This document shows positions 1 to 41,728 of a stretch of 64,000 nucleotides of DNA, piece after piece. A program made the translations under genes and the position numbers. Origin of the DNA: Bacteroidia bacterium (GTDB lineage Bacteria > Bacteroidota > Bacteroidia > UBA8524); contig OZ244977.1 of assembly GCA_965222995.1 (NCBI GenBank), positions 582,095-646,094 of the forward strand, written 5' to 3'. Below the pieces are notes generated by a model that did no database searches, was not told the origin of the DNA, and was given only the letters and a program-made list of their open reading frames with translations. The first letter of the stretch is position 1. Every line of letters begins with the position of its first letter.

Positions 1-348
1 CTTATACACTCGTGGTACTATAGTATTAGCCATATCATCTTCCATTGAAGGTGAAGTAGCTTGATTGTTATTGATAGTAATTTTAATGGCTTTCTGAAAT
101 TTAGCAGATTTAATTTCAGAAGTAAATTGTCTTATTACCCCATTGCTACCGTCATTAACAATTGGGCAAGCAAAATTTAGGTCTTTACCTGCTTCAAACT
201 TAAAGTAGTTGCCATTAATTTTACACTCAAGCCATACTTGTGGAGTTCCTTCAATAGGTTTGGGAAGCTCATTTTTGGTACAACCTCCAAAAACAACTAT
301 TAAAATAAAACTTAGGGTAAGTGTTTTAATATTCCTTAAATGTTTCAT
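1..348 (-). CDS. Hypothetical lipoprotein, 5'-truncated by window edge; paralog of the next gene
   Basis: Minus-strand frame is open from the window edge to an ATG at 346-348. The N-terminus MKHLRNIKTLTLSFILIVVFGGC has a lipobox-like Cys. Its GTPQVWLECKINGNYFKFEAG segment resembles GKPTVWVEGYVNGVPFKYEAG of ORF 348..965. Confidence 0.5.
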   Translation of the reverse strand, partial: MKHLRNIKTLTLSFILIVVFGGCTKNELPKPIEGTPQVWLECKINGNYFKFEAGKDLNFACPIVNDGSNGVIRQFTSEIKSAKFQKAIKITINNNQATSPSMEDDMANTIVPRVYK

Positions 349-965
349 TACTCTTCTCCGAAAGGAATATAACCATGACCATCTGTAATATCATACCAGA
401 AACCATTTGAGGGGTTTTTAACCCTACAATGGAAAAATATTTCTGCTACTTTATAGCGTTTGCCATTATACATAACATCGCTTACAGAAGCAATTTCAAA
501 TCTTGAATTTATGCTGTTTTGGTCATAAGGAACTGTATAAAACTTAGATTGTGTATTATGGTCTATATACAATAAAATAATTTCACTGGTTCTGTAAGGT
601 ACATAAGGGAAAGAATTAGAGTGAACAAACTTATACGTACCTGTTTGTATGGTTTTATCTAAGTCTTCCTGCACTGTACCTAGTTTTCTAGCACCATTGT
701 TTATAGAAATCTCAAGCGATTTATTCAAATCAGGTGCATTAATTTTAAAAATATATTGTCTGCTTTGGCTATCAATATTATGAGCTATGACATTTGCATA
801 ACTTGCATTAGTGCCCGCCTCATATTTAAAAGGTACACCATTAACATACCCTTCTACCCAAACAGTAGGTTTACCGTCAACGGCTTGTGGTAGCTCATTT
901 TTTTTGCATGAGCTGATACCCGTTAAAAGCAGAGATATAAAAGCTATGTATATTAACTTTTTCAC
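348..965 (-). CDS. Hypothetical lipoprotein (signal peptide with lipobox LTGISSC)
   Basis: 205-aa ORF with N-terminus MKKLIYIAFISLLLTGISSCKK. It is the tandem paralog of the partial ORF at 1..348 and lies directly downstream of the sigma/anti-sigma pair. Confidence 0.6.
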   Translation of the reverse strand: MKKLIYIAFISLLLTGISSCKKNELPQAVDGKPTVWVEGYVNGVPFKYEAGTNASYANVIAHNIDSQSRQYIFKINAPDLNKSLEISINNGARKLGTVQEDLDKTIQTGTYKFVHSNSFPYVPYRTSEIILLYIDHNTQSKFYTVPYDQNSINSRFEIASVSDVMYNGKRYKVAEIFFHCRVKNPSNGFWYDITDGHGYIPFGEE

Positions 966-2309
966 TTATCGTGTTAAATTCAGTTTCACAAATAACTGCA
1001 AATGCGCAGGTAAATGTTTTTTATTGTTATTAAAAAAGCTGTTTTTAGTTACGTCATTAAACATTTGGTTATAGCGTACACCCAAGCTATATTTACTAGG
1101 CAGGTTAAATTCATAACCCAGCAATAAACCATAGTTAAATGTATTTAAATCTTCGTACACACCGTTTTTCGTAACTGTTGTTGATGATTTTTCTGCAAAT
1201 CTTTCCCTTTGTTCTGCAACTTCTGTCTTAGCATTTACCAACCACATAGCTGATGTTCCTATGCTAAACTTATGTTTTGGTGTTAATGAGTAGTTTACAG
1301 ATATAGGCAACTGCACATAATCCAATGCCTTGGTAACTAAAAAGAAGTTGGTAGTAGTTTTCTCCAAGAAAAACTCTGTTTGTGTTACATTTCTGGTAAT
1401 GTTATTACCTGTGCTGCGTAAGTAGTTTAGCTCTGCATTAACAGCCCATCGGCGGCTTAAATTTTTACCAAAAAATATCCCTACCATAACGCCACTACCC
1501 ACTTGGAAGTTGTTTGAAGAAGTACTTAGTACTCTATTAAAATTACCTCCTGCTTGTATACCTACCTGTAAACGGTGGAAACGTCTTATCTCATCCAGTT
1601 TTCTTTCAGCTTTTTGGGCAGAGTCAATAAAAGTTTTCTTAGTAGTAACTAAGCTGCCAAAATCAGGATATTCAAAAGGGAACTCCGGATTAATAGATGT
1701 TAGAAGTGTATTTGATAATAAATTTTTAGTAAACAACTTAATATCTGAGGTCTCTGGAGTTACTTTTTTATCAGTATTTTCAACTACAGTAATTTCATCG
1801 GTTTTTTTACTGTCGTCATTTTTTGCAACTACAGGTGTAGGAGCCTCTTTAACTTCAGCGGTTGAGTTGTTTGATGGTGTTGTCGCCGAAGGTGAAACAT
1901 CAGGCGTATTAGTAATTTCGTTAGCAGCAGTGTTCTCATCAATAGAAATAATACCTGCAGTATTAACATCTTTTGATGAGTTTAACTCATTGTCAGCCGA
2001 TGTAGTGTTGGTTTCTTGTTTTGCAACAGGTGCTTGTGCAACAACTTGCTCATTAGCTTTTGGAGCAACATTTTCAGCATAGGTATTAGTATCGTAGCCC
2101 GAAATATAAGCTACTACGGAGCCTGCCAATATAATTGCACCTGCTACACTGGCAAGTATATATTGGTTTATGTTTTTTAAGACGGAGCCGCTATCGTCAG
2201 CATCAAGCATAGCTTCCATGTTTTCCCAAGCACCGGAAACATATTCGCTTTCATGACCATCCAAGCGGTCTTTAAAAAACTTGTCTATGTCGTTAATATT
2301 ATTGTCCAT
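966..2309 (-). CDS. Anti-sigma-factor-like membrane protein with C-terminal outer-membrane beta-barrel (PorT/OMP_b-brl-like) domain
   Basis: 447 aa. A cytoplasmic N-terminus with a W-x7-D motif (SGAWENMEAMLD) is followed by a single TM segment (ILASVAGAIILAGSVVAYI). A long S/T/N/E-rich low-complexity linker leads to a ~200-aa C-terminus with the alternating hydrophobic pattern of OM beta-barrels. The gene overlaps the upstream ECF sigma gene by 11 nt. Confidence 0.6.
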   Translation of the reverse strand: MDNNINDIDKFFKDRLDGHESEYVSGAWENMEAMLDADDSGSVLKNINQYILASVAGAIILAGSVVAYISGYDTNTYAENVAPKANEQVVAQAPVAKQETNTTSADNELNSSKDVNTAGIISIDENTAANEITNTPDVSPSATTPSNNSTAEVKEAPTPVVAKNDDSKKTDEITVVENTDKKVTPETSDIKLFTKNLLSNTLLTSINPEFPFEYPDFGSLVTTKKTFIDSAQKAERKLDEIRRFHRLQVGIQAGGNFNRVLSTSSNNFQVGSGVMVGIFFGKNLSRRWAVNAELNYLRSTGNNITRNVTQTEFFLEKTTTNFFLVTKALDYVQLPISVNYSLTPKHKFSIGTSAMWLVNAKTEVAEQRERFAEKSSTTVTKNGVYEDLNTFNYGLLLGYEFNLPSKYSLGVRYNQMFNDVTKNSFFNNNKKHLPAHLQLFVKLNLTR

Positions 2310-2865
2310 TGGTAATTTCTACCTTTTCTAAATTAGCCTTTTTTTTAAGCATTACCTTTAGCTTTTGCCTTGCGGCATGCAGGTAAGTGCGTGATGTTAC
2401 TTCTGAAATATTAAGTTGCTCACCAATTTCTCTGTGGCTGTAACCGTCAATTGCATATAAATTGAAAACAGCTTTTGCCATGGGAGGAAGCTGGTGCACC
2501 AACTTCATTATCTCTTCAACATTATATTTTGAAACTACACTATTGTCAGTTTCACCATTATATATTTCTAAATATTCGCTATTGGGTGAGATGTAGTGAT
2601 TATAATTTTTACGCTCTTTTATATAATCAAGCGCAGTGTTAATTATAATTCGCTTAATCCAACCTTCAAAACTACCCTGGTTTCTAAACTGCCCAATATT
2701 CTTAAACACTTTAAAGAAACCTAAATTCAAAACCTCCAACGCCTCATCCTGCTTCTTCATATACCTTAGGCATATTGCATACATTTTTCCAAAGTAATGC
2801 TCATATAGCTTTTTTTGAGCTATTCTATCGTTTTCACGACATTTTTCTATGAGCAATTCATTCAT
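2299..2865 (-). CDS. ECF-type RNA polymerase sigma-70 family factor
   Basis: 188 aa with sigma-70 region 2 motifs (FFKVFKNIGQF, SFEGWIKRIIINTALDYIKER) and a region-4 HTH (YSHREIGEQLNISEVTSRTYLHAARQKL). Confidence 0.85.
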   Translation of the reverse strand: MNELLIEKCRENDRIAQKKLYEHYFGKMYAICLRYMKKQDEALEVLNLGFFKVFKNIGQFRNQGSFEGWIKRIIINTALDYIKERKNYNHYISPNSEYLEIYNGETDNSVVSKYNVEEIMKLVHQLPPMAKAVFNLYAIDGYSHREIGEQLNISEVTSRTYLHAARQKLKVMLKKKANLEKVEITNGQ

Positions 2866-3026
2866 TGGACGAGGTGTGCTATTAATGACGATGCTTTTGG
2901 CAACGATGTTGTTATTAGGTTATAAAAATTTACTTAAGATACTATAAAAAGAACAAAATTGCCGATAAAAGGGTTTTACCTTTATTTATATCTGATGTAT
3001 ATATTAACGTAGCAATAATATCATAG

Positions 3027-3034
3027 TATCTTTG
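3027..3034 (+). promoter_or_regulatory. Bacteroidetes-type -7 promoter element TAtcTTTG upstream of mnmA
   Basis: tatctttg matches TAnnTTTG and lies 13 nt before the ATG at 3047. Confidence 0.4.
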
Positions 3035-3046
3035 CAAAGATAAAAA

Positions 3047-4202: not shown

Positions 4203-5879
4203 ATGAAAACATATTTTGTAGTATTTTTTTTAATAGTATCTGTTTTTGCTAAAGCTGATTCTAATGACTCAATAAAATTTTGGGTATCCTTTAAAGACAA
4301 AAAAAGCACTCCATATTCTGTCAACAAGCCGGAAAAATTTCTTTCAAAAAGAGCAATTGAAAGACGCAAAACCTTCAACATAAAAATAACAGAGCAAGAC
4401 TTCCCTGTAAACCCTTCATACGTTAATAAAATAGAAAAAACAGGAGTAAAAGTGCTTAATAGATCGCGTTGGCTAAACGGGGTATCTATTTTAACTGCAG
4501 ATAATAAAAAGATTAAAGAAATTCTTGAACTTCCATTTGTAGCTGATGTGAAAAAGGTAGGGGTATATAGCAAAAAAGATAATTCTAAAATGGATTATTT
4601 AATGGAGCTTTTTATGAGTTTAGGAGGGGACAGCGATACTTCAAAAATTGATGGGCCGTACTACGGGGATGGTTTAAACCAAATACAAATGCTAAATGGT
4701 GTGGAAATGCACAAAAAGGGGTATACCGGCAAGGGCGTTGTTATTGCAGTACTTGATGGGGGGTTTATGAACGTACACAAAATAAAGACCTTCAGGCATT
4801 TGTTTATCAACAATCAAATATTAGGTGCCTGGGATTTTGTACAACTTGATAGTAATGTATACAACGATAATAATCACGGTATGAATGTACTAAGTTGTAT
4901 GGCTGCTAAAACTCCTTACAAAATGGTGGGTACTGCTCCTGATGCTCAATACTGGTTGTTAAGAACAGAAGATGCTAATACAGAGTATTTAATTGAAGAG
5001 TATAACTGGGCTAGCGGCGCTGAATTTGCTGATAGTGCCGGTGCAGATATCATAAACTCATCATTAGGGTATACCACTTTTGATGATAAAACTATGAACC
5101 ATACCTATAAAGACTTAAACGGGAAAAAATCGGTATGTACACAAGCTGCAGCAATTGCAGCACAAAAAGGAATTATAGTATGCAATGCTGCAGGAAATGA
5201 GGGAGATGATAAATGGAAGTATTTGGGTGCCCCTGCCGATGCCGTTGGAATAATTACTGTTGGTGGAGTGAATGGTGATAGTACACATGCTGAGTTTAGC
5301 TCGTATGGCCCAACTGCTGATGGTAGAATAAAACCCACAGTTGTTGCACAGGCAACCAAAGCTATTGTGTCTTCTGTTGACGATAAATTTTATGGTTCTC
5401 AAGGGACATCGTTTTCATCACCAATATTATGTGGTATGGTAGCTTGTTTGAGGCAAGCAAACCCAACAAAAACAGTTGATGAAGTTATAACAGCCATTCA
5501 GTTTAGTGCTACACAGTATCATGCCCCCGATACAGTTTTGGGTAGTGGAATTCCTAATTTTGTTTTAGCAAACCAATATTTAGGAGGTGATGAATACTTT
5601 GACTATAAAAGAAATCAAATAGCCGTTCCCCCTTCATCAATCTTTAAAGAAACCATAAGTTTCACCACATTTTCGCCCAAATACGATAGTATAGTTGTTA
5701 CCATAACCGATACAAAAGGGAATATAGTTTTACGTAAATCTATACTACCTGATGTGAAAAATCCGTTGGGTTTTCATAAAATTAATTTAAGCGAGGCAAA
5801 TAACTTTGCAACAGGAACTTATACCTGTACTGTAAAAATTGATAAAGAAGTAGCAGTATACAAATTAACCAAAGAATAA
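4203..5879 (+). CDS. Secreted subtilisin-like S8 serine peptidase, probable T9SS C-terminal sorting domain
   Basis: Signal peptide MKTYFVVFFLIVSVFA. The catalytic triad context is VLDGGF (Asp), HGMNV (His) and GTSFSSPILCGMVA (Ser). The C-terminal ~80 aa end in GTYTCTVKIDKEVAVYKLTKE, consistent with a Por-secretion CTD. Confidence 0.85.
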   Translation: MKTYFVVFFLIVSVFAKADSNDSIKFWVSFKDKKSTPYSVNKPEKFLSKRAIERRKTFNIKITEQDFPVNPSYVNKIEKTGVKVLNRSRWLNGVSILTADNKKIKEILELPFVADVKKVGVYSKKDNSKMDYLMELFMSLGGDSDTSKIDGPYYGDGLNQIQMLNGVEMHKKGYTGKGVVIAVLDGGFMNVHKIKTFRHLFINNQILGAWDFVQLDSNVYNDNNHGMNVLSCMAAKTPYKMVGTAPDAQYWLLRTEDANTEYLIEEYNWASGAEFADSAGADIINSSLGYTTFDDKTMNHTYKDLNGKKSVCTQAAAIAAQKGIIVCNAAGNEGDDKWKYLGAPADAVGIITVGGVNGDSTHAEFSSYGPTADGRIKPTVVAQATKAIVSSVDDKFYGSQGTSFSSPILCGMVACLRQANPTKTVDEVITAIQFSATQYHAPDTVLGSGIPNFVLANQYLGGDEYFDYKRNQIAVPPSSIFKETISFTTFSPKYDSIVVTITDTKGNIVLRKSILPDVKNPLGFHKINLSEANNFATGTYTCTVKIDKEVAVYKLTKE

Positions 5880-9828: not shown

Positions 9829-12800
9829 TTATCGTAGAAGAGTAACGGTCCCACTAAATGTATATGGTTTACCTGCGAAGCTGGTTACATTCACCACATA
9901 CGTATACACATCTTGCTGAGCGAACTCCCCTTTAAAGAATCCGTCCCAACCCTCAGTAATATCCGTAGAGTAATATACCTTTTCACCCCAACGGTTAAAC
10001 ACAAACACCTCAAACGTCTCATAACCCTCCGCACTTACATAGAACCTGTTATTACGTTCATCCCCGTATAAATTAGGCGTAAACGCATTCGGGATATACA
10101 CCGTAATATCCGGGCCGATAATCAACGTATCCAAATGTTCAGACGAACAACCCTTATCCGTAATCGCCGTTAAACGCACAATATACGTACCCGTATCCGT
10201 AGGATACTCAAACATAGGACTAAACGCCTTAGAATTCGTATTACTCAAATCACCGAACTCCCAAGTATAATCCAGCGTTTGTCTGTTCGCCGGAGCATCC
10301 ACCACAGTTAAATTCGTAAACTGAATATCCGTAGCCGCCACCGTAGTAACCTCACGCGACATAGAAAAATTAGCATACGGCGTAGGATCAATAGTAACAT
10401 TCACAGGCGTAGCATCACGGAAACACGACGTATTTCTATTCGTAACCCTCAAAGTAATCGTATACGTACCCTCACTATTATACACATGCGTTTCAGAAGC
10501 ATTAGAACCCGTATTATTCGCACCACTGGCAGGATCCCCGAAATTCCACACATAATCCGCCTCAGATGCCTGATCCGTCAACGAAGAAAAATCAACCGGT
10601 CTAGGCTCACAACCACCCAGCGGCGGTAAAATTTCAGCCGTAGGAATAGGATAAATAGAAATATCAAACGATTGAGAAGCAGGTGCACACACATCATTCG
10701 CAATAGTATTCGTAGTAAACACACTCACAGAAAACTTCTGCGTAGCATTATCCTGCGAACCCGGCGTATACACAGGCGCATCCGCCGTAGTACTGCTAAA
10801 AGCACCATCCCCTTGCGAAGACCACTGCACCCCGGTAGCCGCCGTATACGCAGCCGAAAGATTAAACGGCTCACCCTCACAAGCAGCAGGAGGAACAGTA
10901 ACATTCAACGTAGGCGTTTCCTGCACCTCAATAGAACCATTCGCCTCCACCGTACACTGGTAGAAATTCGTTACCGAATACTTCAAATCAAACGTACCCG
11001 GACCCGAATTACCCGCATCAAACTGACCACCGGCACTCACCGTACCGTTTTGCGAGCTCCATACCCCGTTAGAAGGAGAACCGTAAGCCGTAACAGAGAA
11101 GAATCCAACATCCTCACACTGTTTAGGAATAGCCGCAATAGCCGTTTGAGGGATAGGGAATATCGTAACCTCCATAGAATCCGTTACCGGACAATTATTA
11201 TTCGGAATATCATACTCATAATATACCCAGCTTTTTGCAGGAACCGTAGCCGTAGACGGGAACAAGCCCGGATTAAAACTAGTACCCTGCAAGCCCATAG
11301 CCCCTAGCTTTTGCGACCAAGTACCCCCCGCAGGAGCAGCACCCGACACCACATTCAAATCCACAGCAGAAGCATTTTGGCATAACGCAGGCGGAATACC
11401 CGCATCCACATTAGGCACCTCACGTACCGTAACCTTAGCCGTATCATAATTAATACACTTAGTAGACGTACTGGTAACCCGCATAACCATATTATACGTA
11501 GCCTTCTGAGCCAACTTACTCAAATCTAAATTGTAACCACCCAAACCGGGCGACAACGCATTATTAGCTTGCGTATTCGGCGAAGACCACACAATAGTAG
11601 AATTAAACTGATTCGTATTCGGGCCGATATGATTACCCATAGTAATCACCCCGTCATACCCGCAATAACTACCATCCAAAGTCTCAGCAATAGGCAAAGG
11701 ATTTACAGGCACAGCCACCACCTTGCTATTCTTACAACCCTGGTTATCCGTAACAGAATATTTCACCATATGTTGAGTAGGTCCCGGAGCACCCGGGTTA
11801 GCACCCGCACTATCCGGATAGAAGAAGCCACCGTTAACAATACTCGGTTTCACAACCCCTTCCCAAGTACCCGTAGTAATCGTAGGCCAAACCAAAGCCT
11901 CAGACGTTAAACTAAACGGAGGGTCATTTACACAACGTGCAGAAACAGGAGCAAAATTAATCTCCGGCAAATCACTTTTAGTAACCTGTACCGTATCCGT
12001 ATTCGTACAAGTAACCCCCTGATACGTTCTGGTAGCCTTAATATGCACCTCACGGTCACCCGTAACCACAAAACTATGCTGGTTAAACGTAGACACCGGT
12101 GTATTCAAATTAGGAACAATATACCACTCATACGTATCCGCACCCGTAGCCGTCATAAACACCGTATCCTGGTCACAAATAGTCTGGTTAGGACCACCAT
12201 CCACAGGCACCGTATTCACAAACAAATTCATCGTATCGTAATTACTACAGCCCAAACTATCCGTTAGCTGTAAAATATACTCACCGCTATCCGAAATATT
12301 CGTAAAACGAGAAGTATCCCCGTTACTCCATAAGAACGTATACGGAATAGAATCATTTCCACCATCCAAAGTTTGGATAGCATCATAACAAATACGGAGA
12401 TCCGGACCGATACTCACAGGAGGAAGCGGTTTCCAGAATACATCCACCGTATCACTATTCTCACAACCGTCCTGGTCTTTTACAGCCACCCAGAACGTAG
12501 AATCCCCTCCTGGATTAATAATAGCGCTAGAAGAAGTATCCCCCGAACTCCAGGTATACTCATAATGAGGAATACCGTCCCAGGTAATCGCATTCAAAGT
12601 CATCGGATTACCGTCACAAATCAAAGTATCAAACGGTAAATCCACCTGAACAAACGGGTCAATATCAATCGTATCCACAAAAGCATTAATACAAGGCGTA
12701 GACGTACGCAAGGTTAAAAACAAACGGTTTTTACCCGGCTGCATACGAATTGTATCCTGCTTTTTACTTGCAAAAGCAATATTTCTGTTATTAGAATCCT

Positions 12801-14085
12801 TCACCAACCAATCGTGCGTCAGTCCCGGATAATTATTCTTCTTCGGCGTATAATCCACAGCCACCAAACCACAATTCAGTTTAGTCCATTGGATAGTAGC
12901 CTCAGGACTTTCCCGAACCGTAATACTAAAGGCCCGGATAGACTGACCTGCCAACGGGCAAGCATCATCCTTAGCCGTAATGGTAAACGTATAAGGGATA
13001 TTACTTACATCAGCATTCGTAGGCGTCCAGCAGACACTACCCGTGGCCAAACGTTTAGAGCCGTTGGTATGTGTAAACACCGCCCCTCGAATACCCTTGT
13101 TCCAGGAAATTTTAACCGTATCCTTCTTATCATTATCCTCAGTTTCAATATCAATACACGTTTGTTGTCCCGCACAAGCAATGGCACTTTGTCCCTTAAT
13201 ACGGGGTACCTTATTGTTCGGACAAGGGACGACGATAATCTGCATATCCCGTCGGGTAATACCCACTTTGGTCATCACCCCGTTAATCTTTCGCCACTCA
13301 GTAACCTCAAGTACCAAAACAGTAACTTGGTTTTGAACGGTAGGACGGAAGCTTAAGTCACCGGTTACAGGGTCTAAACGGAAGCCAGCGGGTTGGTTAA
13401 GACCTGCATTAGGGAATCCTAAGAAAGAAATAGGACGTTGAGCACTCCATGAACCACTGTAAGATATCTTGGCTCCCTGACCGCTTAAAGGCTCTACCAA
13501 ACGGTAAGAAAGAGAGTCTCCATTATCTACAGTATCCAGAGCACCGTTGTTAAACACAAAATCCTGACCTACACAAATAAGGGCAGCAGGTTTAGAAGTA
13601 AATACAGGTGAACTGTTACAAGGAGTTTGGCATTTATTTAATACAGCCTCGGTATAAAAGTTCTGGTTAGCTGCTCCGGTAGTAATATTACTGTTACGGC
13701 AACATTGAGACCAGCTTAAGGTTACCTCACAGCAGTTAAGTACACTTAAGTCTATAATGCCTCTAAAAACGTGCTCTTCAATACCGTAAGCATAGCTACC
13801 GCTACATCTACTTTGGGTAGGACAGCGGGAATCTATACCCGTAATGTCTTTCCTGCTTATAAGTGGTAAGGTAAAACTACGGGTACCTGCATTACAACGT
13901 GCCTGTATAGGTGAGTTGCTTAACTGTATACCGTTACAATCACGATATACGGTAGCAGTTACTTCATATCTTCCGTTACCCAAACACTTGTAGGTAATAT
14001 CACTACCCATTACGTGGGTAGCCTGTACTTCAGTTACAGTAAATATACCAGCAAGGGCAAAAATTAGTAGTAATATTTTTTTCAT
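9829..14085 (-). CDS. Large (1418 aa) cell-surface adhesin-like protein with type-B T9SS (gliding-motility-associated) C-terminal domain
   Basis: Signal peptide MKKILLLIFALAGIFTVTEVQA. The body is Cys-, Thr-, Gly- and Asn-rich and repetitive. The C-terminal ~90 aa (ITVYIPNAFTPN...DERNNRF...FNRWGEKVY...GWDG...YTYV) match the CHU_C/gliding-associated CTD pattern. Confidence 0.85.
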   Translation of the reverse strand: MKKILLLIFALAGIFTVTEVQATHVMGSDITYKCLGNGRYEVTATVYRDCNGIQLSNSPIQARCNAGTRSFTLPLISRKDITGIDSRCPTQSRCSGSYAYGIEEHVFRGIIDLSVLNCCEVTLSWSQCCRNSNITTGAANQNFYTEAVLNKCQTPCNSSPVFTSKPAALICVGQDFVFNNGALDTVDNGDSLSYRLVEPLSGQGAKISYSGSWSAQRPISFLGFPNAGLNQPAGFRLDPVTGDLSFRPTVQNQVTVLVLEVTEWRKINGVMTKVGITRRDMQIIVVPCPNNKVPRIKGQSAIACAGQQTCIDIETEDNDKKDTVKISWNKGIRGAVFTHTNGSKRLATGSVCWTPTNADVSNIPYTFTITAKDDACPLAGQSIRAFSITVRESPEATIQWTKLNCGLVAVDYTPKKNNYPGLTHDWLVKDSNNRNIAFASKKQDTIRMQPGKNRLFLTLRTSTPCINAFVDTIDIDPFVQVDLPFDTLICDGNPMTLNAITWDGIPHYEYTWSSGDTSSSAIINPGGDSTFWVAVKDQDGCENSDTVDVFWKPLPPVSIGPDLRICYDAIQTLDGGNDSIPYTFLWSNGDTSRFTNISDSGEYILQLTDSLGCSNYDTMNLFVNTVPVDGGPNQTICDQDTVFMTATGADTYEWYIVPNLNTPVSTFNQHSFVVTGDREVHIKATRTYQGVTCTNTDTVQVTKSDLPEINFAPVSARCVNDPPFSLTSEALVWPTITTGTWEGVVKPSIVNGGFFYPDSAGANPGAPGPTQHMVKYSVTDNQGCKNSKVVAVPVNPLPIAETLDGSYCGYDGVITMGNHIGPNTNQFNSTIVWSSPNTQANNALSPGLGGYNLDLSKLAQKATYNMVMRVTSTSTKCINYDTAKVTVREVPNVDAGIPPALCQNASAVDLNVVSGAAPAGGTWSQKLGAMGLQGTSFNPGLFPSTATVPAKSWVYYEYDIPNNNCPVTDSMEVTIFPIPQTAIAAIPKQCEDVGFFSVTAYGSPSNGVWSSQNGTVSAGGQFDAGNSGPGTFDLKYSVTNFYQCTVEANGSIEVQETPTLNVTVPPAACEGEPFNLSAAYTAATGVQWSSQGDGAFSSTTADAPVYTPGSQDNATQKFSVSVFTTNTIANDVCAPASQSFDISIYPIPTAEILPPLGGCEPRPVDFSSLTDQASEADYVWNFGDPASGANNTGSNASETHVYNSEGTYTITLRVTNRNTSCFRDATPVNVTIDPTPYANFSMSREVTTVAATDIQFTNLTVVDAPANRQTLDYTWEFGDLSNTNSKAFSPMFEYPTDTGTYIVRLTAITDKGCSSEHLDTLIIGPDITVYIPNAFTPNLYGDERNNRFYVSAEGYETFEVFVFNRWGEKVYYSTDITEGWDGFFKGEFAQQDVYTYVVNVTSFAGKPYTFSGTVTLLR

Positions 14086-34736: not shown

Positions 34737-35165
34737 ATGGTGTTGCAACAAGAACATACAAAAGCAGTAGATACACTTAAAAGCCATAAGCTGCGTATCA
34801 CAGAAACCCGAACTAAGGTTTTAGGCTTATTTATGAACGGACATTTAGCCCTGAAACAGTCTGATGTTGAAGATGCTTTGGGTACTAAGTACGACCGTGT
34901 TACTATTTATCGTACTTTAAATTCTTTTTTAGAAAGTGGCATTATCCATAAAATACCTGACGATAGCGGGGCTACTCAATATGCTTTGTGCGATAATTGT
35001 GATGCACACGAACACCATGATGAGCATATCCATTTTAAATGCACCAAGTGCAATAAGCTGGAGTGTTTAGACCACTATACCGTACCTAAATTTGAAGTTC
35101 CTTTAGGATATACTGTAGCCTCTGCCGATATGGTAGTAATAGGCATTTGTGCAGAGTGTACTTAG
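34737..35165 (+). CDS. Fur-family transcriptional regulator
   Basis: A winged-helix N-domain (LRITETRTKVLGLF, RVTIYRTLNSFLESGIIHKI) and a C-terminal metal site (HEHHDEH, CTKCNK...C...C). Confidence 0.85.
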   Translation: MVLQQEHTKAVDTLKSHKLRITETRTKVLGLFMNGHLALKQSDVEDALGTKYDRVTIYRTLNSFLESGIIHKIPDDSGATQYALCDNCDAHEHHDEHIHFKCTKCNKLECLDHYTVPKFEVPLGYTVASADMVVIGICAECT

Positions 35166-36091
35166 TCTTTTAGTTCTCTAGAAATTAAGTTCTCATATTG
35201 CTGAAACTTATAGTTTTCTGATGTTGCGTTTGAAGAACCAACAACATGCCGAATAATTTTTCCATTTTTATCTACAAGAAACTGTTGGGGAACTCCTTGA
35301 ATATTTAAATGTGATGTGAGTTTTCCATCAACATCATAAAGTATTTTAATACCTTTATTAGCAAAATATTTATTTGTAAAGGCTTGTTTGTAAGTATCTA
35401 TCCTGCCTGTATTTAGTAATATTACTTCAAAATTCTCTTTTTTAAATTTATCTTGTACTTTAGTAAGTAATGGTAATTGTTCGATACAAGGCAAGCAACT
35501 GTTTCTATAAAATTCAAATAGAATAATTTTGCCTTGTAAATTGCCAATATTAGTTTTAATTGAGTCTTTGTTTAAAAGTGCATGTGGCGGGGTGCCATTA
35601 TATATATTTGTATTCAGTTTTGGTGATGTTAAGTTATCGATTAACTCATCCCAACGCCCTATTGAGTTGGCATAAATTATATTACTAATGGATACAAAAA
35701 CAATAAAAACTATAACTATGTAAGTTTTTTTTAATGAATGGACTAAATAACCTAAGTAGAACGAAAGGGTTGCCCAAAAAGGTAGTAGAGGCAAATCATG
35801 CCAAAACATTATTTGATGAGAATTATATGTTGAAAGTATGATGTATAAAGAAGGCAAGAGTAATAAAATAACCTCTAGCAATTTTATTTTTTTTGATTTA
35901 ACTATAAGACCTATAATAAAAAACAGAGTTGAAATTACTGTTGGTCTAAAGTATATATTTTCAATATAGCCGCTTCTAGTAAAACTCCATACTGTAACAA
36001 CTCCAAATCCTAGAACTAATAAGATTATATATTTTAATATTTTTTTCATTTTAAATAGTTCCAGTTTAATTAAGTTTATTAACTGGAACAA
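35162..36091 (-). CDS. Polytopic membrane protein with C-terminal TlpA-like thioredoxin (thiol-disulfide oxidoreductase) domain
   Basis: Roughly five N-terminal TM segments are followed by a thioredoxin fold with the active site CLPC (LFEFYRNSCLPCIEQLPLL) and a cis-Pro region (IQGVPQQFLVDKNGKI). A possible alternative start lies at 36049 (MKKILKYIILL). Confidence 0.75.
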   Translation of the reverse strand: MFQLINLIKLELFKMKKILKYIILLVLGFGVVTVWSFTRSGYIENIYFRPTVISTLFFIIGLIVKSKKIKLLEVILLLLPSLYIILSTYNSHQIMFWHDLPLLPFWATLSFYLGYLVHSLKKTYIVIVFIVFVSISNIIYANSIGRWDELIDNLTSPKLNTNIYNGTPPHALLNKDSIKTNIGNLQGKIILFEFYRNSCLPCIEQLPLLTKVQDKFKKENFEVILLNTGRIDTYKQAFTNKYFANKGIKILYDVDGKLTSHLNIQGVPQQFLVDKNGKIIRHVVGSSNATSENYKFQQYENLISRELKD

Positions 36092-36109
36092 TTACGACAC
36101 TGTAATTTA

Positions 36110-36763
36110 CTATGGGATATTCAGTGCAATAGGGCATAAACCATCACAAGCCCACCTCCAAAAAGTGCCACAACCCGACTTTTTCTTTTTACATGAGTTT
36201 CTTTTTTCACAATCACCTAAAAAAGGGATGCACCAATCTGAACCAGAAGAACATTTACAATTATTATTATCATCCTCTTCAAATATATCATCATTTAAAT
36301 AGTTGGGGTCAATGTCATCTAATGTATTTACTATTCTTTTAATAGTATTTTCATTGAAGTTCGGAATAGCTGATGCCACCCATGTTGGTTCAAATGTATT
36401 TTTAAAACTGATGTCTTCAGCACTCCCATCGGTGAATAAATTAATACTCAACTGGTTAAAAATACTATTCAAATCACTTAACTGTGCAGAGTTCCATACT
36501 GTTAATCCTAACACCTGGTTTTTCTTATCCAACCAAATATTATATTTCTCTGTGGGCGTACAAGTATTGTAAGTAGCTTTCCTTACTGATGGAGAAAGAG
36601 TTAGGAGATATGCTCTTGTAATTGTTGTTTTACGTTGAAAGGCTACTTTTTCATCACTATTATTAATTTGAGGTTCTGTTTCAGACTGAGTGGTTTTAGT
36701 GCAAGAACTCATTATTAATAGCCCGGCTATTAATAATGCAAATTGACTTTTTAATTGTTTCAT
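36110..36763 (-). CDS. Lipoprotein with Cys-rich C-terminal module (9 Cys in last ~50 aa)
   Basis: Lipobox LLIMSSC. The C-terminus is NNNCKCSSGSDWCIPFLGDCEKRNSCKKKKSGCGTFWRWACDGLCPIALNIP. It lies 18 nt upstream of the TlpA-like gene on the same strand. Confidence 0.6.
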   Translation of the reverse strand: MKQLKSQFALLIAGLLIMSSCTKTTQSETEPQINNSDEKVAFQRKTTITRAYLLTLSPSVRKATYNTCTPTEKYNIWLDKKNQVLGLTVWNSAQLSDLNSIFNQLSINLFTDGSAEDISFKNTFEPTWVASAIPNFNENTIKRIVNTLDDIDPNYLNDDIFEEDDNNNCKCSSGSDWCIPFLGDCEKRNSCKKKKSGCGTFWRWACDGLCPIALNIP

Positions 36764-36913
36764 TTCAAGAATTACTTAAGTTAATGAATTGATAATTACG
36801 CAATATCAATATTAAGTTTTAATTACTTAACTTTAATAAAACAAGTTTTAGTATTTCCGCTTATCTAATTTTTTTTAATACTAGTAATGATGTTTTTGGT
36901 AACATCGTTGCAT

Positions 36914-36945
36914 AAAAAACCCCTTCACTTTGTAAGCAAAGGGGC
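36914..36945 (-). terminator. Intrinsic terminator downstream of lipoprotein gene 36981..37745
   Basis: The minus strand reads GCCCCTTTGCTTACAAAGTGAAGGGG followed by TTTTTT. Confidence 0.5.
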
Positions 36946-36980
36946 TCAACCTATATACTAATTACAATTATGAAAAAGAT

Positions 36981-37745
36981 TTAATCCCAGTGTACATGAT
37001 ACTCAACATCAGCATCGTTGTTTTTCAGGTCAAAGGCTTCAATAATTAATTCGTATTCACCTTTTGGCCAAGATGGATCAAAAACAATTTTCTCAGTAAA
37101 ATTTTCTCCCGTCCCGCTTAAGTTTCCATCAATATCTACATAATTTTTTTCTGTTCCTTCATGTATAAGCTTAATTTCATAACTCTTCAAGCCTTTATCA
37201 TCTCCTACAGTACCCTCAATTGTAATTTCATTACTATTTTTTAATTCTATTTCATTATTTGCATCAGGTGCAGGAGTGGTATTTACATTAAGAGTTGGGG
37301 CTATTAAATCTTCGGCGTTTTTTATTACTATTTCAGAAACAATAAAGTCAGCCTCATTGCCGGCTTTGTCAATTACTCGCATCGTAAAATCATAATTTCC
37401 AGCAGCTATATCAATGGGTAAAGTAATTTTAAAATTCAAATTAGCCGTTTTACCACTCAAATTAATAATACTGTCCCACTCAAAAGCAGGTGAGCCATTT
37501 TTCATGTGGGCATGTCCATCAAAGTTTTCGTGTATTTCTATCTTAGCCTGGCTAAGCTCAGTATCATCGTTAATGGTAGCTGAAATTGTAATATCATTCC
37601 CAGATGTAAACTCATCATCTTTTGAAGGGCTATTTAGCTGTACTGATGGCTTAGTGGTATCTTTTGGGCTGTTGTCATCATCTTTTTTACATGATGAGAT
37701 ACCTATTAATAGTAAGGCTGCAAGTGCTAAACTTAGTTTTTTCAT
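36981..37745 (-). CDS. Lipoprotein with two tandem Ig-like repeat domains (DUF4625-like)
   Basis: The start at 37745 gives MKKLSLALAALLLIGISSC. There are two repeats of ~90 aa (ITISATINDDTELSQAKIEIHE / ITIEGTVGDDKGLKSYEIKLIHE). The family name is from memory. Confidence 0.6.
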   Translation of the reverse strand: MKKLSLALAALLLIGISSCKKDDDNSPKDTTKPSVQLNSPSKDDEFTSGNDITISATINDDTELSQAKIEIHENFDGHAHMKNGSPAFEWDSIINLSGKTANLNFKITLPIDIAAGNYDFTMRVIDKAGNEADFIVSEIVIKNAEDLIAPTLNVNTTPAPDANNEIELKNSNEITIEGTVGDDKGLKSYEIKLIHEGTEKNYVDIDGNLSGTGENFTEKIVFDPSWPKGEYELIIEAFDLKNNDADVEYHVHWD

Positions 37746-37783
37746 TTCTATAGTTATTATTTTATATGACTCTTGTTTTTGAA

Positions 37784-37821
37784 ACATTGTTGCAAATATA
37801 ATTAAATGCAACAATGTTGCA
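37784..37821. promoter_or_regulatory. Composite palindromic operator-like element (TGTTGCA half-sites x3)
   Basis: The sequence is ACATTGTTGCA-aatataattaaa-TGCAACAATGTTGCA. It lies in the divergent promoter region between the lipoprotein gene (minus) and the ECF sigma gene (plus). The core TGCAACA-A-TGTTGCA is a perfect palindrome also found at 43113..43127. Confidence 0.45.
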
Positions 37822-37957
37822 AGTAAAAATGCATTTATCAAAGATTGATTATATTGAGGCTATAGATATTTTACATTAAGAGAAATATTTTTAAGTGCGA
37901 TTACAACCCGCCAACCTTAAATACCGTTAATAACATAAACGACCTTCTCCACACGGG

Positions 37958-38515
37958 ATGATTAGTGATAGTGAACTCATAAAAGGATGCATAAACAACG
38001 ACAGGTTGTACCAAAAACACCTGTATGAAAAGTATGCCCGAAAAATGTTGACAGTGTGCCTATGCTACACTAGAGACAGTTATGAGGCTGAGAATATTTT
38101 GCAAGAAGGGTTTATAAAGGTATTTGAGAATTTAAAAAAATATAAGCCCGTAGGAAGTTTTGAAGGTTGGATTAGAAGAATAATAGTGAACACGGCTACC
38201 GATTACTATCGCAAAATGAAACGTGTGAAGTTTATAGAGGTTGATATAGATGAGGCAGGGCACAAAGTATCTACAATAGATATAGACCAATTTGCCACAG
38301 AAGATATAGTGAAGGCTATACAGAAATTGCCAGAGGGGGGGCGAATGGTATTTACCCTATTTGCCATAGAGGGGTATAGCCACGCAGAGATAGCTGAACA
38401 ACTGGGGATTTCTGTAGGAACATCGAAATCTCAGTATGCCAGAGCAAGAACATTATTGCAAACTACACTAAAGAATAGTGAGAGAAATTTTTTTTTAAAA
38501 CATAAAATACTTTAA
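37958..38515 (+). CDS. ECF-type RNA polymerase sigma-70 family factor (paralog of 2299..2865)
   Basis: 185 aa with FIKVFENLKKY, SFEGWIRRIIVNTATDYYRK and a region-4 HTH YSHAEIAEQLGISVGTSKSQYARAR. Confidence 0.85.
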   Translation: MISDSELIKGCINNDRLYQKHLYEKYARKMLTVCLCYTRDSYEAENILQEGFIKVFENLKKYKPVGSFEGWIRRIIVNTATDYYRKMKRVKFIEVDIDEAGHKVSTIDIDQFATEDIVKAIQKLPEGGRMVFTLFAIEGYSHAEIAEQLGISVGTSKSQYARARTLLQTTLKNSERNFFLKHKIL

Positions 38516-38541
38516 AAACATAGCATAAGCTATATAGAGCA

Positions 38542-39933
38542 ATGAAAATTGTTGATTTAAATAACTATGAAGAGAACGACGGCTTAAGAGACAAGTTGAG
38601 GAAGCGTATGGACACGCATGAACCTGAACTTTCTGATAGCGTGTGGGATAGAATTCACCATGAAATGGACAGGCGAGAGGCAAACCGTAAAAAACGTTTC
38701 TTGTGGTGGTTTTCTTCGGTAGCTGTTGTAATGCTTACCAGCGGTATTGTTTCTTTTTTGGTGTTAAGCAATGCCGATAAGCCAGAAGTAGTGGCACAGA
38801 ATACCAAAGAAATAATTTTTTCTTCTCCTGATAACCCTAGTTCAGAAATAATCACATTATCGCAAGATGATGATGAGACTGATGATAACCTACCTAGTAA
38901 AACAGAAAATACATCAAATACAATTTCTAATTCAGGTTTGAGCAATAGAAATTTAGTTCCACCTGTACCGACACCTGTTAATTATAGTTCTGGGCAGGAG
39001 AATATACCTAACAACAGTGTAGAAACAGAAGATAATAGTACAACAAAAGAGCTTACTGAAAAATTAGAAACTAAAGGAGAAGAAGTTGTGCCTGATGCTA
39101 CTACCGAGTCTTCTGAAAATGAAGATATAACTAAGAAAAATGAAAAAGAGCAAGCTATTGCTTTACCTGTTAAGAAAAAAGAGAAACAAGACGACAGCAA
39201 GAAGACTAAAAAAGCAAAAGCAGCCTCAAATTTTTTAAATAAGCGTTGGTTTGTTGGGATAAATTATAGCTTCAACCAAACATACCGTACTGTTACGGAT
39301 ATAACCCCTTCTTTTTTTTACCCTTCGGCAGAAGAACGCAACAAGTTTGAAAAAGCAGGATATAGTTCTAGCTACGGCTTAGAGTTTGGGTTTTATCCTA
39401 TAAAAAACTTTTTTGTTAAATCAGGCTTGGGAATATTCAACTATAAAGAAAATGTTGAATATGATGTGAAGAAAAGACAGTACTTTCCGGGGGGAGGAAT
39501 AGCAGTTATTTATGGGGATTATAAGGATAGTATAGCTGTTGGTAATAGTGTTAAAAAACAAAATACTTACCAATACATACAAATACCAATTGAAGTGGGC
39601 TATAGCAGAACCATTACACCCAGGTGGCAACTTTTTGTGAGTGGCGGGGCCGTTTTGAATATTTTACAGAATTACAGATATCACATGTATGAGTCATTTT
39701 ACGAGAATGCTGTCATACCACCGGGTGTTGAAGAAAATTATGATGACATGTATACAAACTATGTAATGCTTAGTGGAGGTATAGGAGGGCAGTATGCATT
39801 ATCGAGGAATTGGATGTTAAGCTTTGGTATAAATTACCGTAGGGCTGTAACATCAGCCGCCGACAAAAAATATGCAGTTGATGTAAGACCTTATTCACTG
39901 GGCGCATCAACGGGTTTGGCGTTTAGATTTTGA
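38542..39933 (+). CDS. Anti-sigma-factor-like membrane protein with C-terminal outer-membrane beta-barrel domain (paralog of 966..2309)
   Basis: 463 aa. The N-terminus has the motif DSVWDRIHHEMD, then one TM segment (LWWFSSVAVVMLTSGIVSFLVL), then an S/T/N/E/D-rich linker. The C-terminal ~230 aa are beta-barrel-like, ending GLAFRF. Confidence 0.6.
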   Translation: MKIVDLNNYEENDGLRDKLRKRMDTHEPELSDSVWDRIHHEMDRREANRKKRFLWWFSSVAVVMLTSGIVSFLVLSNADKPEVVAQNTKEIIFSSPDNPSSEIITLSQDDDETDDNLPSKTENTSNTISNSGLSNRNLVPPVPTPVNYSSGQENIPNNSVETEDNSTTKELTEKLETKGEEVVPDATTESSENEDITKKNEKEQAIALPVKKKEKQDDSKKTKKAKAASNFLNKRWFVGINYSFNQTYRTVTDITPSFFYPSAEERNKFEKAGYSSSYGLEFGFYPIKNFFVKSGLGIFNYKENVEYDVKKRQYFPGGGIAVIYGDYKDSIAVGNSVKKQNTYQYIQIPIEVGYSRTITPRWQLFVSGGAVLNILQNYRYHMYESFYENAVIPPGVEENYDDMYTNYVMLSGGIGGQYALSRNWMLSFGINYRRAVTSAADKKYAVDVRPYSLGASTGLAFRF

Positions 39934-40047
39934 ACTTTTGAGTAGAAAGTTATTGGTTAGGTGTTAGCCCTGAGGTAGTAAAATACCACAGGGCTTTTTG
40001 GCTAAACTTAATCGACTAATAAACTTTTTATTTCGACGACCAATGTT

Positions 40048-40081: not shown

Positions 40082-41728
40082 ATGAAAAAATATATTTTAC
40101 ATATTGTTTTTTGCATAGCTTTCATTACTCCTGGCTTTGCTCAGATAGCTGAGGATAATGGCTTCATTGCAAATCAGTTATATGTAAAAATCATTCCTCC
40201 AACTGCACAATCTTTCGAAGTACAATATATACCTCACCCAGATAATCCTGATATGGGCAAAAGTGCATGGCAGGTAATAAAAAATTATGGGGGAATGAGT
40301 ATGGTAAATGCCTTTTCAACTACCTATAAAGATTTGCAAAATGTGTATAAAGTAACTTTAAAAGAAGGTTCTGATATTGAAGCATTGTTGAATGCATTGG
40401 GCAAAAACCAAGATGTTGAGTATGTTGAGCGAATACCTGTTTACAATACAACTGCAAAACCTGTTGATTTAGATGAGGGCAAACAATGGTATTTCAAAAC
40501 CATTAACATGGATAGGTCGTGGACTTCGGTACAACGTGTTTCATGGAGGCTAAAAACTATTGCCGTTATTGATAATGGTGTTCTCTACAATCATGAAGAC
40601 TTGGTTGGTAGTATAGAACAGAATTTAGGAGATATTCCCGGAGATGGTATTGATAATGACGGTAACGGTTATATAGATGATTTTTATGGATGGAATGTTG
40701 CTGCAAATAATGGCGACCCAAGACCACATGATATACCTCAAAACCTGAGAAATGATGCCCGCTTTGAAAAATACGGCTGGCATGGAACCCATGTTGCCGG
40801 GGTTATAGCAGCTGGTATTGACAACAATAAGGGGATAGCATCTTTAGGTATAAATAATAAGGTACTTTGTATAAAAGCGGCGGGAGTAATAAATGGTAAA
40901 CCTAACGATGCCATATTATACAACATTAATGAAGCCTTTAGATATGCTATAGATAGAAAGGTTGACATAATAAACTGCTCATTTGGGTCATCAAACCCCT
41001 CTATTGTAACGCAAGCAATTATAAATGAAGCAGCAAGTAAGGGCATTATAATTATTGCTGCAGGAGGGAACGGAGGAACTGATGAAGCATTTTATCCCGC
41101 AGCATACAATAATGTAATAGCTGTTGGTGCTACCACCCGTGATGATAAAATATTGGGTGAAAGTAATTATGGTAGCTATATTGATGTGATGGCACCCGGG
41201 CATGAAATTTACAGTACCGTTAGTACTAGTAATAATAGTTATGGATACTTATCGGGGACTTCAATGGCAGCGCCTATAGTATCAGGGATTGCGGGACTTA
41301 TAATATCTATGGAGCCGCATTTGGCAAACCAAATTGAAGAAATTATTAAGGGAGGATGTGATAATATTGACTCTAAGAATCCAAACTTTAAAGGTAAAAT
41401 GGGTGCAGGAAGGGTTAATGTAGACAGAAGTTATTTGTATATGGAAGGGCTGGTATCTGTAAAAGAGTTTCCAAACTATAAGAACTTTAGCGTTTACCCT
41501 AATCCTTCGTCAAATAACATATATATTCCCTTCAACGAAATTTCTATTTCAGGGCAACCCGTTTTAGTAAAAATATTAAATACGGTTGGTGCCCAAGTTG
41601 CCCAACAAGAAGTTAACTATCAAAACCAACCTGTTTCTGTAACACAATTGTCGCAAGGAATTTATCAAGTTGTTGTTACTAATATTAGTGGAGAGAACTA
41701 TCGCTCTCGTTTGGTCGTAAATCGCTAG
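40082..41728 (+). CDS. Subtilisin-like S8 peptidase with type-A T9SS C-terminal sorting domain
   Basis: Signal peptide. Catalytic motifs are AVIDNGV (Asp), HGTHVAGVIAA (His) and GTSMAAPIVSGIAGL (Ser). The C-terminal ~80 aa (FSVYPNPSSNNIYIPF...GIYQVVVTNISGENYRSRLVVNR) match the Por secretion CTD. Confidence 0.88.
   Translation: MKKYILHIVFCIAFITPGFAQIAEDNGFIANQLYVKIIPPTAQSFEVQYIPHPDNPDMGKSAWQVIKNYGGMSMVNAFSTTYKDLQNVYKVTLKEGSDIEALLNALGKNQDVEYVERIPVYNTTAKPVDLDEGKQWYFKTINMDRSWTSVQRVSWRLKTIAVIDNGVLYNHEDLVGSIEQNLGDIPGDGIDNDGNGYIDDFYGWNVAANNGDPRPHDIPQNLRNDARFEKYGWHGTHVAGVIAAGIDNNKGIASLGINNKVLCIKAAGVINGKPNDAILYNINEAFRYAIDRKVDIINCSFGSSNPSIVTQAIINEAASKGIIIIAAGGNGGTDEAFYPAAYNNVIAVGATTRDDKILGESNYGSYIDVMAPGHEIYSTVSTSNNSYGYLSGTSMAAPIVSGIAGLIISMEPHLANQIEEIIKGGCDNIDSKNPNFKGKMGAGRVNVDRSYLYMEGLVSVKEFPNYKNFSVYPNPSSNNIYIPFNEISISGQPVLVKILNTVGAQVAQQEVNYQNQPVSVTQLSQGIYQVVVTNISGENYRSRLVVNR

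Follow-up and report, generated by a model that had tools for sequence, protein, structure and literature searches.

The proposed sigma factor operon of module 1

The window analysed here is a 64-kb (64,000 nt) stretch of DNA from an uncultured, non-gut Bacteroidia lineage. Module 1 begins with an ECF sigma factor gene, and all of its elements were confirmed in position on the minus strand. The sigma factor gene (2299..2865, minus strand) encodes a Das/EcfO-like protein of 188 aa. Its Pfam domains were Sigma70_r2 (E = 1.6e-13) and Sigma70_r4_2 (E = 2.2e-14) only, which is the two-domain (sigma2 + sigma4) ECF type, and the NCBIfam model TIGR02937 passed its cut-off of 42.9 with 91.7 bits. The more specific NCBIfam models, subfamily as well as equivalog, all stayed below their cut-offs for this protein; the best were Sig70_bacteroi1 (88 vs. 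126 bits) and sigma_PG0214 (81 vs. 130 bits). The sigma factor shared 38–45% identity with the sigma factors adjoining two distant Dma-like proteins. ECF21 sigma factors are found only in Bacteroidota and are encoded beside a Dma-type anti-sigma gene (10.1101/2025.09.27.678952). The module 1 sigma factor has this context; assignment to the group as such is made with a group-specific ECF classification HMM.

The partner gene (966..2309) encodes a protein of 447 aa and shares 11 nt (2299..2309) with the sigma factor gene, an overlap already recorded in the first-pass annotation. Lipoprotein gene 1 (348..965, minus strand; 205 aa, lipobox LTGISSC) begins directly past the partner's stop codon. 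The ATG of lipoprotein gene 2 (1..348, minus strand) overlaps the stop codon of gene 1 by 1 nt, and gene 2 is cut at the window edge. The two lipoprotein genes were earlier described as paralogs, and this holds: they abut on the same strand and their products share 33% identity over 111 aa, gene 2 being partial. A full-length gene 2 paralog was found in orthologous loci, and at the closest of these loci the full-length pair showed 43% identity to each other.

At E ≤ 0.001, 27 homologs were found. Orthologs of 87, 51, and 42% identity retain the 11-nt overlap as well as the gene order (sigma, partner, lipoprotein, lipoprotein). With these homologs and the conserved synteny, the ORFs of module 1 are genuine genes and not chance reading frames. 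The start codon of the 447-aa protein is backed by a near-invariant MDNNINDIDKFF motif.

Neither lipoprotein matched a Pfam family at E ≤ 0.1. In NCBIfam, the only match was Riean_0653_fam with 27 bits, under its cut-off of 57, and fold comparison gave only a weak LpqH-like match. Assignment to the NigD family was not supported, as there was no NigD Pfam domain and no match to NCBIfam NF051862 (NigD1/NigD2). At the sequence level, the two proteins show no relationship to NigD, the lipoprotein family known from the Dma1 regulon, which suggests that the output of module 1 differs from that of the studied systems.

Architecture of the 447-aa partner protein

The AF2 model of the partner protein comprised N-terminal helices, a transmembrane (TM) helix, a disordered region at residues 70–216, and a confident barrel. 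These parts agree with the first-pass description of a 447-aa protein with a W-x7-D motif, one TM helix, a disordered S/T/N/E-rich linker of about 150 aa, and a C-terminal OMP_b-brl-type domain. Residues 1–46 (2172..2309, minus strand) form an acidic segment (12 acidic vs. 4 basic residues) with W28-x7-D36; W28 was invariant and D36 nearly so across 22 orthologs. AF2 placed two helices in this segment (residues 4–16 and 27–36) with low confidence (pLDDT 45–49). We infer that the segment binds the sigma factor, because Das1, an ECF21 sigma factor, is pulled down by residues 1–40 of Dma1 (Pardue et al. 2024, PMC10927553). No Pfam match to the classical anti-sigma domains zf-HC2, RskA, and FecR was obtained in the partner proteins of either module of the window.

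The predicted TM helix (residues 47–69; 2103..2171, minus strand), a putative inner-membrane anchor, contains the hydrophobic stretch YILASVAGAIILAGSVVAYISGY, which was kept in the orthologs. The N-terminal segment is net acidic and K45 is the only basic residue beside the helix, so the positive-inside rule alone does not set the topology of the module 1 protein; the module 2 protein has RKKR at this place.

The predicted periplasm-spanning linker (residues 70–216; 1662..2102, minus strand) is polar and disordered (pLDDT 28–38) and hypervariable. Over 144 aa of it (residues 72–215, pLDDT < 40), the composition included T (21), N (17), A (14), E (13), and S (12), and S/T/N/E/D/K/P/A/Q made up 78%. 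The linker differed in sequence and length among the orthologs, whereas conservation was seen in the barrel and in the N-terminus together with its TM helix. A helix at residues 217–244 (1578..1661, minus strand; pLDDT 52–74), partly conserved, lies just ahead of the barrel.

Residues 245–447 (969..1577, minus strand) were predicted to be an outer-membrane beta-barrel domain. The Pfam family PF13568 (OMP_b-brl_2) matched residues 231–421 (E = 2.7e-14, 54 bits vs. cut-off 27) and PF13505 also matched the C-terminus (E = 2.4e-9). The barrel is of the small, 8-stranded type (OMP_b-brl_2) that belongs to the Dma family. Its C-terminus reads ...LNLTR and lacks the aromatic residue with which OMP beta-signals typically finish. 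PorT and other small barrels of Bacteroidota share the Pfam family OMP_b-brl_2 with this domain. Unlike the partner protein, PorT-type barrels stand alone with a signal peptide and have no anti-sigma segment, TM anchor, or tether.

Promoter-like motifs and the second module

A promoter-like motif of ECF type, ACAAC-N17-CGTCA, is located at 2886..2912 (minus strand), 21 nt at the 5′-side of the sigma ATG, and is proposed as an autoregulated promoter. When four orthologous intergenic regions were aligned, it fell within an invariant block. All nine module 1 ortholog loci with the motif have it at the 5′-side of the sigma gene, and eight of the nine have no other match. A strict match to the pattern, ACAAC-N17-CGTTA (37903..37929, plus strand), also precedes the sigma gene of module 2, where ATTACAACC and CGTT were conserved between two orthologous upstream regions. 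The form ACAAC-N17-CGTY is thus present ahead of both sigma genes, and it may serve as an ECF promoter. Across the window, four matches to the strict pattern were counted where 0.56 would be expected. A scan with the sigma-70 consensus was uninformative, giving 12 sites against 12.9 expected. The match at 1487..1513 (minus strand) was attributed to chance, as it falls within the sequence coding for the barrel and no orthologous locus has it at that position. The match at 10147..10172 (plus strand), antisense within a 1418-aa ORF, was likewise attributed to chance. In two very distant relatives, no similar motif was seen at the 5′-side of the sigma gene.

Module 2 lies on the plus strand. Its ECF sigma factor (37958..38515; 185 aa) contains Sigma70_r2 (E = 9.4e-16) and Sigma70_r4_2 (E = 2.9e-17). 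A gap of 26 nt, without overlap, separates this gene from that of a Dma-like protein of 463 aa (38542..39933), which has W35-x7-D43, the basic RKKR before a TM helix, a polar linker, and a barrel ending in ...LAFRF. A terminator-like hairpin with a U-run (39966..40000, plus strand; −19.5 kcal/mol, z = −2.8) closes the two-gene operon. An S8 peptidase gene downstream was rejected as an operon member because this hairpin lies in between, and no lipoprotein genes follow module 2.

The barrel of the module 2 protein scored 21 bits in the window copy, under the Pfam cut-off. Among 27 orthologs of this protein, 19 matched OMP_b-brl and 9 matched OMP_b-brl_2. The N-terminus and TM helix are homologous between the two modules (hhalign 94.7%, E = 5.9e-8). 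The first-pass annotation regarded module 2 (37958..39933) as almost identical to module 1. The shared architecture was borne out, but the near-identity was not: the sigma factors shared 42% identity and the partners approximately 21% over the N-terminal part. On these comparisons, module 2 is a distant paralog of module 1 with the same architecture. The whole two-gene module (37903..40000) presumably works like module 1 with another output.

Proposed signalling and relation to the Dma family

We consider it quite probable that 1..2912 (minus strand) is a four-gene operon encoding a Dma-type envelope-stress signalling module, in which the partner holds the sigma factor and releases it after outer-membrane damage. 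With its acidic two-helix N-terminus of approximately 46 aa, the 447-aa protein would keep the ECF sigma factor bound at the inner membrane, cross this membrane once, span the periplasm as a disordered tether of approximately 145 aa, and end in a small OmpA/NspA-like beta-barrel set in the outer membrane. Damage to the outer membrane, or a signal there, would cause both tether and anchor to be cut by proteases. The freed sigma factor would then transcribe from its own ACAAC-N17-CGTC promoter, yielding more sigma factor, more anti-sigma factor, and the two co-transcribed paralogous lipoproteins as the likely output. The gene order and overlap, the domain architecture, the barrel fold, the conservation pattern, and the promoter-like motif are directly seen at the locus. 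The sigma binding, the location in two membranes, the proteolytic release, and the autoregulation would follow the examples of Dma1/Das1 and Reo/EcfO. The earlier proposal of an inner-membrane-anchored anti-sigma factor with its C-terminus in the outer membrane agrees with the published Dma model, and all architectural elements of that model are present; binding and insertion of the 447-aa protein itself are presumed. For Dma1, only C-terminal barrel fragments were found to reach the OMVs (PMC10927553). Of the suggested role as a sensor of outer-membrane or secretion status, the outer-membrane part is in line with the Dma model; the secretion part (PorT/T9SS) was not upheld, as no link of module 1 to type IX secretion was found.

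A different reading would make the tether transient: the single chain would be cut constitutively soon after assembly into a short inner-membrane anti-sigma factor and an independent outer-membrane barrel, and signalling would proceed without a physical link. In the case of Dma1, C-terminal fragments of approximately 20 and 17 kDa build up, and the full-length protein is lost in the stationary phase (PMC10927553). The conserved helix at residues 217–244 could mark a processing site. However, full-length Dma1 exists in growing cells as one polypeptide bearing both the N- and C-terminal tags (PMC10927553), and the fusion of N-terminal module and barrel recurs across many lineages, which would be difficult to account for were the link without function. 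We regard constitutive cleavage as unlikely. More improbable still is a C-terminal beta-barrel that remains soluble in the periplasm, which would make the protein a conventional single-membrane anti-sigma factor with a periplasmic sensor. Least credible is a common outer-membrane protein whose signal sequence is exceptionally long and whose residues 1–69 would be removed on export while the sigma factor is controlled otherwise: a possible signal-peptidase site (ISG|Y) does follow the hydrophobic stretch, but this stretch has the length of a TM helix (approximately 23 residues), the 46 residues before it are among the best conserved of the protein, the N-terminal segment is homologous between the paralogous modules and forms tandem arrays in relatives, unlike the n-region of a signal peptide, and tight coupling to sigma genes is general among orthologs and distant relatives.

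The two-membrane design proposed for module 1 is already known from gut Bacteroides through work on the Dma/Reo family between 2013 and 2024. Reo/EcfO of Bacteroides fragilis was reportedly described by Ndamukong et al. in 2013. The likeness of the window module to Dma1 (WP_008766767.1) and Reo is one of architecture and context. As in Dma1/Das1, an ECF sigma gene is followed by the gene of a protein of approximately 450–500 aa (Dma1 runs at approximately 55 kDa). In this protein, a short N-terminal segment leads into a single TM helix and a long disordered linker, and an OMP_b-brl_2 barrel forms the C-terminus. The Dma family is spread across the Bacteroidota (PMC10927553) and restricted to them, and the Dma1 regulon also includes lipoprotein paralogs. 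The differences lie in the origin of the window, an uncultured Bacteroidia lineage, and in the adjoining lipoproteins, which are not of the NigD family.

The Dma2/Das2 system of B. thetaiotaomicron (BT_1559-BT_1555) likewise holds the sigma factor, Dma, and downstream uncharacterised genes in one operon (10.1101/2025.09.27.678952). Its downstream genes are BT_1555 and those of DUF4858 and DUF4943 proteins, whereas module 1 has two paralogous lipoproteins without Pfam families; Dma2 is also confined to the genus Bacteroides, unlike the window module (10.1101/2025.09.27.678952). Reo/EcfO and M0N98_03760/61 of Phocaeicola vulgatus have the same architecture, and their sigma factor is far better conserved than the anti-sigma factor, as here (PMC9308784, PMC13114119). 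Toxins that damage the envelope induce these systems, the Reo/EcfO regulon included (PMC9308784, PMC13114119). Their regulons hold nigD paralogs and LPS O-antigen functions, and nothing comparable was identified in the window. In FecA/FecR/FecI, an outer-membrane event is also relayed across the periplasm to an ECF sigma factor, but three proteins are involved (a TonB-dependent receptor, the FecR anti-sigma factor, and the sigma factor), whereas here receptor and anti-sigma factor would be one chain. In Pfam, the module proteins matched neither FecR nor the signalling domain of TonB-dependent receptors.

The downstream lipoproteins are likely the regulated cargo of module 1. The idea has precedent, because a dma2 mutant shows its strongest induction in the genes that follow dma2 in the operon (10.1101/2025.09.27.678952) and NigD lipoprotein paralogs form the EcfO/Das1 regulon (PMC13114119). 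The translationally coupled pair has no Pfam family, is not NigD, and gave only the weak LpqH-like fold match; we tentatively speculate that it might represent an undescribed class of Dma-controlled envelope proteins, either dedicated effectors or outer-membrane co-sensors working with the barrel. In that case, this compact and self-contained operon would serve as a model of the tasks that Dma systems perform.

What is new here is the example from an uncultured lineage, the conserved promoter-like motif ahead of both sigma genes, and the non-NigD lipoprotein pair. The window adds two diverged Dma-type paralogs from uncultured non-gut Bacteroidia, each with a candidate promoter, and one of the two operons carries probable output genes. 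Their use is comparative, concerning which parts are conserved, what the promoter may look like, and which cargo genes accompany the module; the known mechanism is unchanged.

A profile search with the N-terminal segment matched 829 cluster representatives. In the 102 of these that were scanned, the commonest C-terminal domain was an OMP barrel (36 OMP_b-brl_2 and 23 OMP_b-brl). The N-terminal segment occurred in relatives as tandem arrays ahead of the TM helix, and both distant relatives examined are encoded directly at the 3′-side of an ECF sigma gene, overlapping its end. Sigma factor clusters showed more than 90% identity, against 53–68% for the partners. The distribution points to Bacteroidota only: six of the seven genome loci bear titles of Bacteroidia, Sphingobacteriales, or Cyclobacteriaceae MAGs, and the remaining one (L010), entitled Agrobacterium sp., is probably a mislabelled bin. 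Both named protein matches come from Bacteroidota/Bacteroidia.

Gene organization and conservation of module 1

Four closely packed genes occupy window positions 1..2912 on the minus strand. The first encodes an ECF sigma factor of 188 aa (2299..2865), in which Sigma70_r2 and Sigma70_r4_2 were the sole domains. This protein scored above the threshold of the general ECF model TIGR02937, and in the NCBIfam scan it fell below every subfamily cut-off. The sigma gene overlaps the gene of a 447-aa partner (966..2309) by 11 nt, and a lipoprotein gene of 205 aa (348..965) begins right behind the partner's stop codon. The second lipoprotein gene starts at an ATG (346..348) that shares one base with the preceding stop and continues past the window edge. 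Within the window, the two lipoproteins could be compared over 111 residues and were 33% identical, and the full-length pair of the closest ortholog locus was 43% identical; judged by these identities, they are true paralogs.

The order mnmA (divergent), sigma, partner, lipoprotein, lipoprotein was kept, together with the 11-nt overlap, in three ortholog loci whose partners were 87, 51, and 42% identical. Seven genome loci were found, six of them titled as MAGs of uncultured Bacteroidia or related Bacteroidota; the seventh, labelled Agrobacterium sp., is probably a mislabelled bin. The sigma factor is much more conserved than the partner, and genomes with partners 53–68% identical still carried sigmas within one 90% cluster. 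The same asymmetry between sigma and anti-sigma has been given for EcfO/Reo in P. vulgatus (PMC9308784).

The 447-aa partner and its N-terminal family

The partner was aligned with 22 orthologs (23–87% identity), and the alignment was used as input for an AlphaFold2 model. Residues 1–71 were strongly conserved, with W28 invariant and D36 nearly so (W-x7-D). The N-terminal residues MDNNINDIDKFF were near-invariant, and the start codon of the gene is therefore fixed. The model predicted helices at 4–16 and 27–36 and a hydrophobic helix at 47–69. Residues 72–215 were hypervariable in length and sequence, and the model was unstructured from 70 to 216 (pLDDT 28–38); the 144-residue linker contains 21 T, 17 N, 14 A, 13 E, and 12 S. 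A further helix was predicted at 217–244, followed by the conserved region 245–447. Residues 231–421 matched the Pfam families OMP_b-brl_2 (E = 2.7e-14) and OMP_b-brl, and the C-terminal part was predicted as a beta-barrel with pLDDT 72–94 in most 10-residue blocks and 60 in one. The first-pass annotation had described a real module correctly, including the gene overlap, the W-x7-D motif, the TM helix, the disordered linker, and the OMP_b-brl domain. The barrel ends in ...LQLFVKLNLTR (969..1000) without a terminal aromatic residue, and an ending of ...LNLT[RK] or ...LNLN[RK] was kept in 21/22 aligned sequences; this ending may point to a distinct signal for recognition by BAM.

The N-terminal segments of the two window families were combined into one profile, which matched 829 proteins at E ≤ 0.001 in a search of 1.84 billion cluster representatives. 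OMP_b-brl_2 (36) and OMP_b-brl (23) were the commonest partner domains among the 102 relatives scanned. Two distant relatives were checked, and each directly follows an ECF sigma gene whose end it overlaps; these sigmas shared 45% and 38% identity with the module-1 sigma. Together, the profile matches, the domain counts, and this linkage show that the N-terminal module plus barrel forms a large coherent family that is always linked to a single type of ECF sigma.

Other C-terminal fusions among the 102 relatives (alignment A7) were CHU_C type IX secretion domains (9), PKD (5), PorP_SprF (1), and DUF3575 (1), which hints that this anti-sigma module may also be coupled in other ways to the outer membrane or T9SS. 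Two relatives, P0091 and P0092, carry four tandem copies of a motif of about 30 aa (D-x-L-F-K-x-x-L ... W-x7-D) before the TM helix, and a third, P0105 (L015:829-3003), carries about nine. The usual linker and barrel follow the arrays in all three, and P0105 still overlaps an ECF sigma gene upstream. Such arrays are not mentioned in the Dma papers examined. We speculate that, given these arrays, one anti-sigma might hold several sigma molecules.

Comparison with Dma/Reo systems and proposed mechanism

The architecture of the module is already published. EcfO/Reo was described in B. fragilis by Ndamukong et al. (2013), as cited in later work. For the P. vulgatus ortholog, Evans et al. (2022, PMC9308784) noted a predicted topology that crosses the periplasm and ends in an outer-membrane barrel at the C-terminus, and they found its regulon induced by envelope-damaging toxins. 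Dma1(1-40) pulled down the ECF21 sigma Das1, full-length Dma1 bore its N- and C-terminal tags, and barrel fragments were the only part of it to reach vesicles; Dma1-like proteins occurred in 27/29 of the Bacteroidota genomes surveyed, and other Gram-negative groups had none (Pardue et al. 2024, PMC10927553). [quoted passage not shown] Because these features are in print, the first-pass interpretation, including the downstream lipoproteins as regulated cargo, re-derives the known Dma model. The window family, with its N-terminal module, barrel, and one kind of ECF sigma, matches the Dma/ECF21 literature; all architectural and contextual features of the Dma family were found, the likeness to Dma1/Reo being one of architecture and context, and that of the sigma to ECF21 one of domain content and genomic context.

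The best-supported reading, which we consider probable, is a Dma-type switch. The N-terminus of the partner would sequester the sigma factor, and the tether would join the inner-membrane anchor to the outer-membrane barrel. Envelope stress would lead to proteolysis that frees the sigma, which would then autoinduce the four-gene operon; sequestration, release, and autoinduction are drawn from the homologous systems. It is improbable that the partner is cleaved constitutively and its halves act separately, since this view is weakened by the pattern of conservation, by the fold matches, and by the repeated fusion of module and barrel. The same three observations make a soluble periplasmic C-terminal barrel very unlikely, and an ordinary OMP whose signal sequence is long scarcely credible.

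Module 2 and candidate promoters

Module 2 lies on the plus strand and comprises an ECF sigma gene (37958..38515) and a 463-aa partner gene (38542..39933); a terminator-like hairpin (39966..39995) with a U-run ends this two-gene module. It had been called almost identical to module 1, which holds for the design but not for the sequence, as the sigmas were 42% and the partners about 21% identical. Profile-profile comparison showed that the N-terminal segment and TM helix are homologous between the families (94.7% probability, E = 5.9e-8; residues 6–77 against 12–81). An RKKR positive patch precedes the TM helix of the module-2 partner. The barrel of the window copy was under the Pfam cut-off, and 19/27 orthologs matched OMP_b-brl and 9/27 OMP_b-brl_2. 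Its C-terminus (39901..39930) is a classical ...GLAFRF.

The ECF promoter consensus has AAC within the -35 element and CGT within the -10 element. In four orthologs, the intergenic region ahead of the module-1 sigma gene shares the invariant block TAACAACATCG...AAAA..ATCGTCA, whose sequence reads as an ECF-type promoter (-35 AAC, -10 CGT, spacing 17 nt). At the corresponding position, module 2 carries ACAAC-N17-CGTTA, where ATTACAACC and CGTT were conserved in orthologs. The strict pattern ACAAC-N16-18-CGTYA had four window matches where 0.56 were expected, a count reached in 0/100 shuffles. Nine module-1 ortholog loci contain the pattern; each has it ahead of the sigma gene, and in eight this is the sole match. 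We infer sigma autoregulation from this candidate promoter. The third and fourth window matches were rejected as chance, one being without conservation in orthologs and the other antisense within a large ORF.

A perfect 16-nt palindrome, TATCTTTGCAAAGATA (3027..3042), is located 4 nt ahead of the start codon of mnmA and was invariant in four orthologous intergenic regions. Each half is TAnnTTTG, the housekeeping -7 promoter element of Bacteroidota, and the palindrome may be a bidirectional promoter for mnmA and basal expression of the sigma operon.

In the two orthologs examined, module 2 is flanked by fur on its upstream side and, on its downstream side, by an S8 peptidase bearing a T9SS tail and next a C1 peptidase. 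In both, fur directly precedes the sigma gene, and the three minus-strand genes between them in the window (35162..37841) therefore look like an insertion. Their products are a membrane protein of 309 aa, a bacteriocin-like lipoprotein related to fulvocin C (NF033852, E = 4.9e-29), and a lipoprotein of the DUF4625 type (E = 3e-31). Each module has a gene for a subtilisin-like S8 peptidase nearby (4203..5879 and 40082..41728), and these two peptidases share only 26% identity. The one behind module 2 is syntenic in orthologs, where it bears a T9SS Por_Secre_tail; the terminator-like hairpin separates it from module 2, and a TAnnTTTG-like element lies upstream of it. The window also encodes a cysteine-rich secreted protein of 1418 aa (9829..14085, minus strand), whose C-terminus resembles, by eye, a T9SS sorting domain of the gliding-motility (CHU_C) type.
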